A DNA stretch of 526 bases from Escherichia coli (lineage in GTDB: Bacteria > Pseudomonadota > Gammaproteobacteria > Enterobacterales > Enterobacteriaceae). Under the pieces are notes generated by a model. The model searched no databases and was not told the origin of the DNA. It was given only the letters and a program-made list of their open reading frames with translations. Positions within the stretch are counted from its first letter, which is position 1; each line of letters begins with the position of its first letter. The stretch lies in NCBI RefSeq assembly GCF_003334255.1, contig NZ_QOWU01000225.1; one strand, given 5' to 3'. Made by a program: the position numbers and the translations under genes. Shown one piece after another: positions 1 to 526 of the stretch.

Positions 1-2
1 CC

Positions 3-37
3 GTAGGCCGGATAAGGCGTTCACGCCGCATCCGGCA
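3..37 (-). repeat. REP palindromic unit, Y-type (canonical orientation on minus strand), loop variant TC (plus-strand reading)
   Basis: Reverse complement of 3-37 is tgccggatgcggcgtgaacgccttatccggcctac, matching the E. coli Y-type REP consensus. Stem GCCGGAT (7-13) pairs with ATCCGGC (30-36); inner stem GGCGT (16-20) pairs with ACGCC (23-27). GTAG at 3-6. Confidence 0.85.
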
Positions 38-49
38 GTCGTGCGCAGA

Positions 50-86
50 TGCCTGATGCGACGCTAACGCGTCTTATCAGGCCTAC
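50..86 (+). repeat. REP palindromic unit, Z-type (probably Z2), plus orientation
   Basis: tgcctgatgcgacgctaacgcgtcttatcaggcctac. Stem GCCTGAT (51-57) pairs with ATCAGGC (76-82); inner stem GACGC (60-64) pairs with GCGTC (69-73); loop taac; 3' tail CTAC at 83-86. The T at stem position 4 (GCCTGAT vs GCCGGAT) is as I recall for Z-type units. Confidence 0.8.
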
Positions 87-103
87 AAATTCCCGCGCCA
101 TCC

Positions 104-138
104 GTAGGCCGGATAAGGCGTTTACGCCGCATCCGGCA
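104..138 (-). repeat. REP palindromic unit, Y-type, loop variant TT (unit B)
   Basis: Same as 3-37 except t at 123 in the hairpin loop (ggcgtTTacgcc), so the stem is preserved. gccggataaggcgtttacgccgcatccggc is a common E. coli REP variant. Confidence 0.85.
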
Positions 139-150
139 GTCGTGCGCAGA

Positions 151-187
151 TGCCTGATGCGACGCTAACGCGTCTTATCAGGCCTAC
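151..187 (+). repeat. REP palindromic unit, Z-type, plus orientation
   Basis: Identical to 50-86. Confidence 0.8.
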
Positions 188-204
188 AAATTCTCGCGCC
201 ACCC

Positions 205-239
205 GTAGGCCGGATAAGGCGTTCACGCCGCATCCGGCA
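205..239 (-). repeat. REP palindromic unit, Y-type, loop variant TC (unit A)
   Basis: Identical to 3-37. Confidence 0.85.
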
Positions 240-251
240 GTCGTGCGCAGA

Positions 252-288
252 TGCCTGATGCGACGCTAACGCGTCTTATCAGGCCTAC
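252..288 (+). repeat. REP palindromic unit, Z-type, plus orientation
   Basis: Identical to 50-86. Confidence 0.8.
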
Positions 289-305
289 AAATTCCCGCGC
301 CATCC

Positions 306-340
306 GTAGGCCGGATAAGGCGTTTACGCCGCATCCGGCA
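306..340 (-). repeat. REP palindromic unit, Y-type, loop variant TT (unit B)
   Basis: Identical to 104-138. Confidence 0.85.
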
Positions 341-352
341 GTCGTGCGCAGA

Positions 353-389
353 TGCCTGATGCGACGCTAACGCGTCTTATCAGGCCTAC
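353..389 (+). repeat. REP palindromic unit, Z-type, plus orientation
   Basis: Identical to 50-86. Confidence 0.8.
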
Positions 390-406
390 AAATTCTCGCG
401 CCACCC

Positions 407-441
407 GTAGGCCGGATAAGGCGTTCACGCCGCATCCGGCA
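407..441 (-). repeat. REP palindromic unit, Y-type, loop variant TC (unit A)
   Basis: Identical to 3-37. Confidence 0.85.
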
Positions 442-453
442 GTCGTGCGCAGA

Positions 454-490
454 TGCCTGATGCGACGCTAACGCGTCTTATCAGGCCTAC
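454..490 (+). repeat. REP palindromic unit, Z-type, plus orientation
   Basis: Identical to 50-86. Confidence 0.8.
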
Positions 491-507
491 AAATTCCCGC
501 GCCATCC

Positions 508-526
508 GTAGGCCGGATAAGGCGTT
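508..526 (-). repeat. REP palindromic unit, Y-type, partial (truncated by window end)
   Basis: gtaggccggataaggcgtt matches the first 19 nt (plus-strand reading) of the Y-type units at 3-37 and 104-138; the window ends before the loop. Confidence 0.7.

Follow-up and report, generated by a model that had tools for sequence, protein, structure and literature searches.

Interior of a probably expanded BIME-2 array between mhpE and mhpT of Escherichia coli in a 526-nt stretch of repeat DNA

BIME-2 elements are defined by the Y-S-Z2-s scheme (Ton-Hoang et al., 2012, PMC3333891), and their copy number at a locus differs between strains (PMC3333891). REP325 is a 12-unit Y/Z2 array of this architecture between the same-strand genes yjdM and yjdN (bioRxiv 10.64898/2026.03.23.713779). 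It stabilises the upstream mRNA and lowers downstream expression ~8-10-fold, an effect that is partly Rho-dependent and goes along with a ladder of hairpin-ended RNAs, and at the endogenous locus the expression of both neighbouring genes was changed, ~3-fold and ~10-fold; REP effects were context-dependent, and half-lives were not uniformly changed (10.64898/2026.03.23.713779). REP325 is also the source of naRNA1-6 (Rfam RF02564). A further array, between mhpE and mhpT, has been described as rich in secondary structure and as a hotspot at which junctions of lac amplifications arise (PMC3161906).

We analysed a 526-nt stretch of E. coli DNA (hereafter the window), which a sequence-only reading had placed wholly within a long BIME-2-like REP array. 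This was borne out, as unique sequence is absent and Tandem Repeats Finder returned a single array over positions 1-526 with a period of 101, 5.2 copies, 97% matches, no indels and a score of 1010. A repeat search of the window gave copies of 223 nt lying 101 apart, and copies 202 apart were 100% identical. Within each 101-bp unit an inverted Y is joined head to head with a Z2 through a 13-nt linker, and a 17-nt tail-to-tail linker completes the unit; five full units, in the order A-B-A-B-A, precede the opening 19 nt of a sixth Y. Exact pattern matching detected the Y unit GCCGGATGCGGCGTRAACGCCTTATCCGGCCTAC five times on the minus strand (0 expected, 200 shuffles) and the Z2 unit TGCCTGATGCGACGCTAACGCGTCTTATCAGGCCTAC five times on the plus strand (0 expected). 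At its default seed the repeat search found no inverted repeats in the window, because the arms are short and imperfect; the palindromic units were shown instead by folding and pattern searches. The features of the window are as follows, complete Y and Z2 units being placed by exact pattern match and linkers by the unit listing unless stated otherwise.

1-526, no strand: internal part of a BIME-2 array (Tandem Repeats Finder, repeat search, unit listing)
1-2, plus: closing CC of a tail-to-tail linker that starts outside the window (register with the later linkers)
3-36, minus: Y unit 1, type A, loop C at 22; hairpin energy -19.5 (plus strand) and -21.3 kcal/mol (minus strand)
37-49, plus: head-to-head linker S AGTCGTGCGCAGA, copy 1 (locus-diagnostic jointly with the Z2 loop)
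50-86, plus: Z2 unit 1; hairpin energy -21.4 (plus strand) and -21.9 kcal/mol (minus strand)
87-103, plus: tail-to-tail linker ('s' motif) AAATTCCCGCGCCATCC, variant C..T
104-137, minus: Y unit 2, type B, loop T at 123
138-150, plus: S linker, copy 2
151-187, plus: Z2 unit 2
188-204, plus: tail-to-tail linker AAATTCTCGCGCCACCC, variant T..C
205-238, minus: Y unit 3, type A
239-251, plus: S linker, copy 3
252-288, plus: Z2 unit 3
289-305, plus: tail-to-tail linker, variant C..T
306-339, minus: Y unit 4, type B
340-352, plus: S linker, copy 4
353-389, plus: Z2 unit 4
390-406, plus: tail-to-tail linker, variant T..C
407-440, minus: Y unit 5, type A
441-453, plus: S linker, copy 5
454-490, plus: Z2 unit 5
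491-507, plus: tail-to-tail linker, variant C..T
508-526, minus: Y unit 6, truncated to 19 of 34 nt, the window ending one base short of the variable loop site (unit listing)

The earlier reading had counted at least 11 units, six Y and five Z; the five Z2 units are present, whereas the Y units are five complete copies and one truncated copy rather than six complete ones. Without exception, Y units lie on the minus strand and Z2 units on the plus strand, so that the orientation alternates strictly, as had been proposed, and the two linkers are as constant as the reading had them. The head-to-head linker AGTCGTGCGCAGA is identical in 5/5 copies, and the tail-to-tail linker AAATTCYCGCGCCAYCC, which we take to be the motif named 's' rather than 'r', was written correctly and comes in the two variants C..T and T..C. 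Two variable sites in this linker had been recognised, but a third had been missed, a C/T site in the Y loop at positions 22, 123, 224, 325 and 426 of the window, and with it the alternation of A and B. The two unit types differ at these three sites, which are fully linked to one another; thus types A and B alternate strictly and the 202-bp super-period is perfect across the window. The window starts directly after variable site 101 and ends directly before variable site 22, and since both edges adjoin variable sites they may be artificial, set either by the greatest extent of perfect repetition or by a break in the assembly.

As far as sequence can tell, assignment of the window to BIME-2 is supported, with every sequence-testable feature of the Y-S-Z2-s scheme present. 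The GTAG/CTAC tetranucleotide that marks the foot of these imperfect palindromes is carried by all five full Y units, the truncated Y and all five Z2 units, the short head-to-head linker and the 17-nt tail-to-tail motif, in the place of the BIME-2 flanking motif s, l or r, occur without a long L linker, and the elements stand in 5.2 tandem copies. BIME-1 elements (Y-L-Z1, RIP/RIB elements) resemble the window in pairing a Y unit with an inverted second unit, but they have Z1, an IHF site within a long L linker, and single copies (PMC3333891). No match to the IHF site of BIME-1 type (WATCAANNNNTTR consensus) was found in the window, and with its Z2 units, 13-nt linker and many tandem copies BIME-1 was rejected. 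Comparison with REP325 showed the same architecture of inverted Y, short head-to-head linker, Z2 and 17-nt tail-to-tail motif, with a period of 100 bp instead of 101 bp and a unit that is 90% identical. The REP325 Y is identical to the type-B Y of the window, while the type-A Y differs at 1/34 positions, in the loop; its Z2 matches at 35/37 positions, with the loop TTGC in REP325 and TAAC in the window. The REP325 tail-to-tail motif AAATTCCCGCACCCTCC shares 15/17 positions with that of the window and differs at 2/17, and its head-to-head linker is AACGGTGCCGAC as opposed to AGTCGTGCGCAGA.

Despite the absence of unique sequence, the window can be placed. Judged by its matches it is the interior of the BIME-2 array located between the mhpE stop codon and the mhpT start codon of E. 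coli. The best matches (97-98.7%) all fell into the mhpE-mhpT spacer in every match examined (DLI.5a, LR-46, K-12, D8, XL10-Gold, L6_E562, 63-2 and YZ22PE106), and the location was extragenic in each of these genomes. The K-12 array, also present on F'128, shares with the window the S linker AGTCGTGCGCAGA, a Z2 loop of TAAC, the 17-nt linker and the 101-bp period; internally it is built of units that combine A and B as a C/T/C hybrid, whereas the window alternates strictly between the two, and types A and B themselves also occur in the mhpE-mhpT arrays of other strains. The locus-diagnostic part is the head-to-head junction (S linker and Z2 loop): a 38-nt Y-S-Z2 junction was detected in 1,661/5,426 complete E. 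coli genomes, with 1-6 occurrences in each, and K-12 chromosomes have it at three places, which is exactly the number in the K-12 mhp array. The 17-nt tail-to-tail linker was also considered as a locus-specific mark and was rejected, as the motif recurs at yjdM-yjdN and at a third locus. Similar sequence is present in all 5,426 genomes searched, so the resemblance to enterobacterial REP/BIME sequences on which the sequence-only reading depended holds, as does its BIME-2 architecture (Y, Z2, short linkers, tandem copies). The position is intercistronic, which the reading had named besides 3' UTRs as usual for such arrays, the array lying between two genes on the same strand, the minus strand of the window. 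In 4,105 records the best match reaches only 80-90%, and many of these presumably carry short mhp alleles.

The copy number of the array varies between strains, as had also been anticipated, with mhpE-mhpT spacers from 175 to 880 bp in steps of 101 bp. In a spread sample of 56 genomes the spacer measured 175-185 bp in 28, 274-276 bp in five, 375-377 bp in five, 476-478 bp in three and 577 bp in 15. Most frequent in this sample is the 175-bp allele, which consists of one Y unit, and with about half of the sampled genomes having only that one unit a long array is clearly dispensable. K-12 has a 577-bp spacer with nine palindromic units, some finished genomes have 7-8-unit arrays in which types A and B recur, and rare long alleles have spacers of 678, 779, 781 and 880 bp, the last being that of DLI.5a, the longest allele examined, which shows a block duplication B-A-A'-B-A. 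A core allele u0-B-A-terminal is common among strains. Because ten complete units and a partial one are internal sequence alone, the array from which the window derives must have at least 15 palindromic units and at least 880 bp, equalling or exceeding that of DLI.5a, and it probably measures ~981 bp. Its simplest form would be u0 or A', followed by (B-A)n, the terminal unit and the last Y, with n at least 3. The array is ordinary in kind and unusual only in length, which at least equals the longest among the 5,426 finished genomes.

Single Y and Z2 units fold into imperfect hairpins of -19.5 to -21.9 kcal/mol on either strand, and the whole minus-strand fold of the window has a z-score of -16.8. 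By analogy to REP325, which likewise lies between two same-strand genes, the array most likely acts as a series of stable RNA hairpins that protect the upstream mhp mRNA and attenuate read-through into mhpT. In the mhp operon transcript, hairpins of approximately -20 kcal/mol would block 3'-to-5' exonucleases, by which we propose that the upstream mhpABCDFE message is protected, and the same run of hairpins would attenuate read-through into mhpT via partial termination, making the number of units a dial on the mhpT-to-mhpE expression ratio. A simple and crude consensus scan of the K-12 spacer found no sigma-70-like promoter on either strand, and a simple scan found no intrinsic terminator in the spacer, the one terminator-like site being located inside mhpT; read-through from the mhp promoter is thus a plausible source of mhpT mRNA, although a weak or activator-dependent mhpT promoter may be located in the 93 nt adjoining mhpT. 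Direct experiments exist for REP325, whereas the RNA and topology roles of the mhp array are predicted from other BIME-2 loci. The two arrays also have opposite orientations relative to transcription, the order in the mhp sense RNA being Y, tail-to-tail linker and inverted Z2, and as a consequence the REP325 result may not transfer quantitatively.

At the DNA level, Y units would be the preferred sites of gyrase binding and cleavage. Gyrase cleavage is enriched in BIME-2, more in y than in z2 units and independent of transcription (Sutormin et al., 2018, PMC6379681), and BIME-2 sites are mostly found between supercoiling regions (PMC10592627). From these data on the class, the mhpE-mhpT array is probably a gyrase-binding site; it does not figure by name among the BIME-2 loci rich in gyrase (PMC6379681), and neither mhpE nor mhpT occurs in two supplementary text files of that paper. 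With Y units as gyrase sites, the array could absorb transcription-driven positive supercoils and serve as a local topological barrier, as we propose. It is probably also a recombination hotspot, a role that has been published for this locus before. With units that are nearly identical and a dyad symmetry between neighbouring Y and Z2, the array would expand and contract in multiples of 101 bp, be it by unequal recombination, replication slippage or the REP-associated Y1 transposase TnpA-REP, and the same properties would make the array a hotspot for larger rearrangements. TnpA-REP cleaves at TGCC/TGAT and GGCC/TAC (cleavage at the slash; PMC3333891), and both motifs are found in every unit of the window.

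The even spacing of palindromic repeats recalls a CRISPR array, in which partially palindromic repeats are regularly spaced as well, and short open reading frames of 22-39 codons in the repeat, together with RefSeq records that call the array a 'hypothetical protein', could suggest a coding tandem repeat. Both readings are extremely improbable and were rejected on the constant linkers and the gene context: the window has two repeat types in alternating orientation, its 'spacers' are two constant linkers instead of variable sequences, and the neighbours are mhpE and mhpT and not cas genes, so that the cas flanks or variable spacers which the earlier reading had named as refuting it are absent, while the reading frames are repeat-frame artefacts and the one annotated example examined was flagged as frameshifted, incomplete and a pseudogene. 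More weight is due to the idea that the DNA is genuine mhpE-mhpT BIME-2 sequence whose perfect A-B-A-B-A order and copy number are products of assembly. The exact window is absent from the 5,426 complete E. coli genomes (best match 98.7% over 526 nt), and its first 404 nt had no 100% match among the 40 matches listed from these genomes. The arrangement is equally absent from the GTDB species-representative genomes, where a search with the tail-to-tail linker pattern gave no more than three loci, each with a single match and each in Escherichia sp. E1V33, and from JGI metagenome contigs, where a 142-nt phase-specific pattern matched two loci, a u0-B-A-terminal allele and a contig broken inside the array. 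Plasmids gave only F' plasmids with the K-12 allele and other BIME-2 arrays at 85-89%, and the phage search only single palindromic units. None of the searched collections contains A-B-A-B-A, so the copy number of the source rests on the assembly; the lack of unique sequence, window ends exactly beside variable sites 101 and 22, and draft and metagenome assemblies that break inside the mhpE-mhpT array all fit such an origin. Such a product could be a contig made of repeats alone, or a loop that the assembler passed through any number of times, and the true array may then be shorter or longer. Nevertheless, we regard this explanation as unlikely, since finished genomes do hold the 7-8-unit arrays with A and B types, the common core allele makes an expansion of (B-A)n simple and plausible, and multi-unit block duplications occur elsewhere, as in DLI.5a.

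The units might also be understood as genes for naRNA4-type nucleoid-associated noncoding RNAs that bind HU, bridge cruciform DNA and condense the chromosome. RF02564 (naRNA4/CssrE) matches every unit, at 85-87 bits (plus strand) and 62-63 bits (minus strand), all above the gathering score of 59.5, and HU with naRNA4 was reported to condense DNA, with decondensation of the nucleoid upon REP325 deletion (Qian et al., 2015, PMC4550694). However, the strong matches are on the plus strand, while the flanking genes transcribe the minus strand; an naRNA4 would be a discrete RNA of ~77 nt in the sense of the upstream gene, as the naRNA is at REP325, and the simple scan found no promoter-like site on either strand of the K-12 spacer. 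RF02564 was built on the REP325 Y-linker-Z2 unit and hence detects the shared BIME-2 architecture and not a locus-specific gene. Moreover, a 2026 preprint that shares an author with PMC4550694 contradicts the HU/condensation claim, as deletion or overexpression of REP325 left the nucleoid volume unaffected and HU-dependent REP-REP contacts were not observed (10.64898/2026.03.23.713779); we consider this reading very unlikely. A selectively neutral or selfish by-product, multiplied by transposase or recombination without host function and drifting in length, is a somewhat doubtful but more serious alternative. It would account for the single-Y allele being the commonest in the sample and for the coexistence of 1 to 15 units in one species; TnpA-REP cleaves and recombines BIMEs in vitro and has been proposed to amplify them (PMC3333891), and the half-lives of mRNAs do not respond uniformly to REPs (10.64898/2026.03.23.713779). 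Yet REP325 alters both of its neighbours at the endogenous locus, BIME-2 is specifically enriched for gyrase cleavage, and neutral drift in length is compatible with a biochemical effect on mhpT expression. We hold it quite probable that the window is best explained by an expanded mhpE-mhpT BIME-2 array with RNA-hairpin, gyrase and recombination roles, of which the regulatory and topological ones are inferred by analogy with other BIME-2 loci, while identity of sequence, locus, polymorphism and the potential for hairpins are shown directly.

The class of this array and the role of its locus as a hotspot are known, with BIME-2 arrays, copy-number variation between strains, gyrase binding and the mhpE-mhpT rearrangement hotspot all published, and in this respect the array has little discovery value. 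The labels 'hypothetical protein' and 'naRNA4', which annotation pipelines and Rfam attach to such arrays, are unreliable at face value. A 202-bp (B-A)n repeat with zero mismatches could reflect a very recent, possibly ongoing amplification beyond the alleles of the 5,426 genomes, by which mhpT would be dialled down if the number of units sets read-through; we offer this as a tentative and not very likely interpretation. If true, the strain would have a naturally 'dialled-down' 3-hydroxyphenylpropionate transporter, and REP copy number would serve as an expression rheostat. With one to at least 15 palindromic units in a single species, the locus would be well suited for a test of the recently proposed role of REP arrays as tunable terminator and stabiliser elements.

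The whole 526 nt constitute one tandem array with a period of 101 (5.2 copies, 97% matches, no indels), in which copies spaced 202 bases apart are 100% identical. Alternating Y and Z units with constant 13- and 17-nt linkers had been described accurately in the sequence-only reading, and the repeat is built as follows.

Elements of the 101-bp repeat, in order
First: Y palindromic unit (REP), minus strand, GCCGGATGCGGCGTRAACGCCTTATCCGGCCTAC, five exact copies (0 expected by chance)
Second: head-to-head linker S, 13 nt, AGTCGTGCGCAGA
Third: Z2 palindromic unit (REP), plus strand, TGCCTGATGCGACGCTAACGCGTCTTATCAGGCCTAC, five exact copies
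Fourth: tail-to-tail linker, 17 nt, AAATTCYCGCGCCAYCC

Six Y and five Z units had been counted; five exact Y and five exact Z2 were recovered, the sixth Y being interrupted by the window end. The variable linker sites had also been recognised, with the third variable site of each unit, in the Y loop, and the complete linkage of all three being missed. Because of this linkage, two unit types, A (C,C,T) and B (T,T,C), alternate in the order A-B-A-B-A. As the window starts directly after one variable site and ends directly before another, its limits suggest the edges of a perfect-repeat stretch or an assembly break and are probably not biological boundaries.

Following Ton-Hoang et al. (2012, PMC3333891), BIME-2 elements are built from y and z2 REPs that point in opposite directions, with a short linker S between them and s, l or r as flanks; in BIME-1, which occurs as a single copy, z1 takes the place of z2 and the linker (L) is long and contains an IHF site. 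All sequence-testable BIME-2 features are present in the window and no IHF consensus was detected in it, in agreement with the class proposed before. Against the Rfam model of naRNA4 (RF02564), the plus strand of each unit scores 85-87 bits and the minus strand 62-63 bits; as this model represents the Y-linker-Z2 unit of REP325 (the yjdM-yjdN BIME-2 array), the matches reflect architecture. The units were rejected as naRNA genes, since the strand with the higher scores is antisense to mhp, in contrast to REP325, where the naRNA has the sense of the upstream gene. A CRISPR array was excluded by the constant linkers and by flanks consisting of mhp genes rather than cas genes, and a coding tandem repeat by ORFs that are repeat-frame only (≤39 codons). 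In some genomes a RefSeq/PGAP 'hypothetical protein' is annotated over the array (e.g. L019:488-781); one such overlapping annotation examined is flagged as a frameshifted, incomplete/partial pseudogene, and these annotations are repeat-frame ORF artefacts. A 35-nt stretch 100% identical to an E. coli Y unit occurs in the Campylobacter phage records A18a and A11a, which is unexpected for the host and may be due to contamination or chimeric assembly.

The relation to REP/BIME DNA was upheld by similar sequence in 5,426 of 5,426 complete E. coli genomes, at a median of 23 places per genome, as expected for such elements. Matches of 97-98.7% identity in these genomes are restricted to one locus, so that the similarity search suggested earlier led to the mhpE-mhpT spacer with its flanking mhp genes; all top matches examined lie there (DLI.5a, LR-46, K-12 MG1655, D8, XL10-Gold, L6_E562, 63-2 and YZ22PE106). 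Relative to the window both genes are encoded on the minus strand, so that transcription passes the mhpE stop codon, crosses the array and then reaches the start of mhpT. As a locus marker, the 17-nt tail-to-tail linker was rejected: yjdM-yjdN (REP325) and a third locus have an almost identical motif, which is therefore family-wide. A 38-nt Y-S-Z2 junction query matched 1,661 of the 5,426 genomes at 1-6 places each, and in K-12 chromosomes at three places, exactly the junction count of the K-12 mhp array; on these matches, the head-to-head junction is the locus-diagnostic part. Identity between the unit of REP325 and that of the window is only 90%. The third BIME-2 locus, found in Escherichia sp. 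E1V33 (L006:300-500, NZ_RHJI01000005.1), shares the tail-to-tail motif, and its S linker ATTCGTGCGCAGA has one mismatch to that of the window.

In finished genomes the spacer has the following layout.

Layout of the mhpE-mhpT spacer
mhpT-side flank: 93 nt, unique
First unit: u0 (degenerate, 99 nt) or an A-like unit
Internal units: n x 101 nt
Terminal unit: marked Z2 (CAGACC) and linker TCTCACGCC
Last Y, then 48 nt up to the mhpE stop codon

Spacer lengths were obtained with a composite query of both flanking genes in 56 genomes sampled at even spacing: 175-185 bp in 28, 274-276 bp in 5, 375-377 bp in 5, 476-478 bp in 3 and 577 bp in 15. The 175-bp allele has one Y unit only and the 577-bp spacer of K-12 has 9 palindromic units; longer alleles are rare and comprise those of XL10-Gold and L6_E562 (678 bp each), LR-46 (779 bp), D8 (781 bp) and DLI.5a (880 bp, 15 units). 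The proposed comparison across strains thus yielded a range of 175 to 880 bp; for annotated REPs in MG1655, 1-12 units have been reported (bioRxiv 10.64898/2026.03.23.713779). Types A and B were found again in other strains with a common core of (u0 or A')-B-A-terminal-last Y, and the window would fit a (B-A)n expansion of this core. To hold five perfect internal units together with the obligatory end units, its allele would require a spacer of 880 bp or more, and one of ~981 bp (~17 units) if n is 3 or more. Among the 30 matches listed, the whole window aligned in one piece in only three genomes. In the single-Y allele (L014:1001-1175, L016:1001-1175) the head of the Y is followed by 8 nt, AGTCGTGC, that equal the first 8 nt of the expanded-allele S linker; this may reflect growth of the array in situ from this Y with its flank, or alternatively a short allele produced by collapse between the first and last Y. 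The array also differs between K-12-derived MG1655 (L003; 577 bp, T..C linkers) and XL10-Gold (L009; 678 bp, three pure A units with C..T linkers), reflecting either array change in laboratory lineages or another origin of this region in XL10-Gold.

The exact window arrangement was absent from complete E. coli genomes (n=5,426; best match 98.7% among the matches listed), species-representative genomes (tail-to-tail linker pattern search), metagenome contigs (142-nt pattern search), and the plasmids and phages searched. Moreover, the array breaks short-read assemblies: an Escherichia sp. E1V33 draft (L005:11060-11147) and a metagenome contig (L013:1-192) both end inside it, and array length is therefore probably under-reported in draft data. 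Both observations would suit copy number and perfect alternation being assembly products of otherwise genuine DNA, an unlikely explanation that we retain because assemblies break inside the array. Element and locus are both known already; what is unusual is the apparent length of this allele.

BIME-2 elements are enriched in gyrase cleavage sites, chiefly in y units and independently of transcription (PMC6379681), and BIME-2 sites lie mostly at borders of supercoiling regions (PMC10592627); from this class we infer a possible gyrase or supercoiling role at the mhp array. The mhpE-mhpT array is a hotspot with ~20% of sequenced amplification/rearrangement junctions near lac, ascribed by its authors to secondary-structure potential (PMC3161906). 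TnpA-REP cleaves TGCC|TGAT and GGCC|TAC in vitro (PMC3333891); both motifs are present in every window unit, and expansion could thus be driven by the transposase as well as by recombination. A second BIME array, inverted relative to the first, lies ~2 kb away in the fghA (frmB)-yaiL spacer (K-12, L003:832-1054); its edge carries the S motif in reverse-complement form, TCTGCGCACGACT, and in SC418 (L011:1201-1309) one of its units is 97.9% identical to that of the window. The two arrays form inverted repeats on both sides of mhpT-yaiL and could mediate inversion or sequence exchange; both were drawn as REP blocks at inversion endpoints (Lin et al., 2011). F'128-type plasmids carry the K-12 allele (L017, NZ_CP014271.1, 226488-232954), and this record ends 77 nt past yaiL at the neighbouring REP cluster. 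F'128 reportedly formed by recombination between REP sequences, with which this record end agrees.

Single-unit hairpins of -19.5 to -21.9 kcal/mol were predicted for either strand, and the predicted fold of the entire minus-strand RNA is far better than shuffles (z = -16.8). As adjacent units are imperfect inverted copies of each other, Y and Z2 pair over long distances in the predicted optimum. A simple scan revealed neither a sigma-70-like promoter nor an intrinsic terminator in the K-12 spacer, its sole terminator-like site falling inside mhpT. The first unit lies 48 nt beyond the mhpE stop; ribosome stalling caused by a REP is known only for REPs within ~15 nt of the stop codon. REP325, with 12 Y/Z2 units between two genes of the same strand, stabilises upstream yjdM mRNA and lowers downstream yjdN ~8-10-fold, partly Rho-dependently and with a ladder of hairpin-ended RNAs, has no measurable effect on nucleoid compaction, and REP effects are reported to be context-dependent (bioRxiv 10.64898/2026.03.23.713779). 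Because the gene configuration is the same, the mhp array may likewise stabilise upstream mRNA and lower downstream expression, and unit number would be the tunable parameter of this dual role. Nevertheless, unit orientation relative to transcription is the reverse of that in REP325, and half of the genomes sampled get by with a single unit. The mhpE-mhpT locus represents a natural allelic series of 1 to 15+ units, the main use of which would be to test REP arrays as an expression dial.
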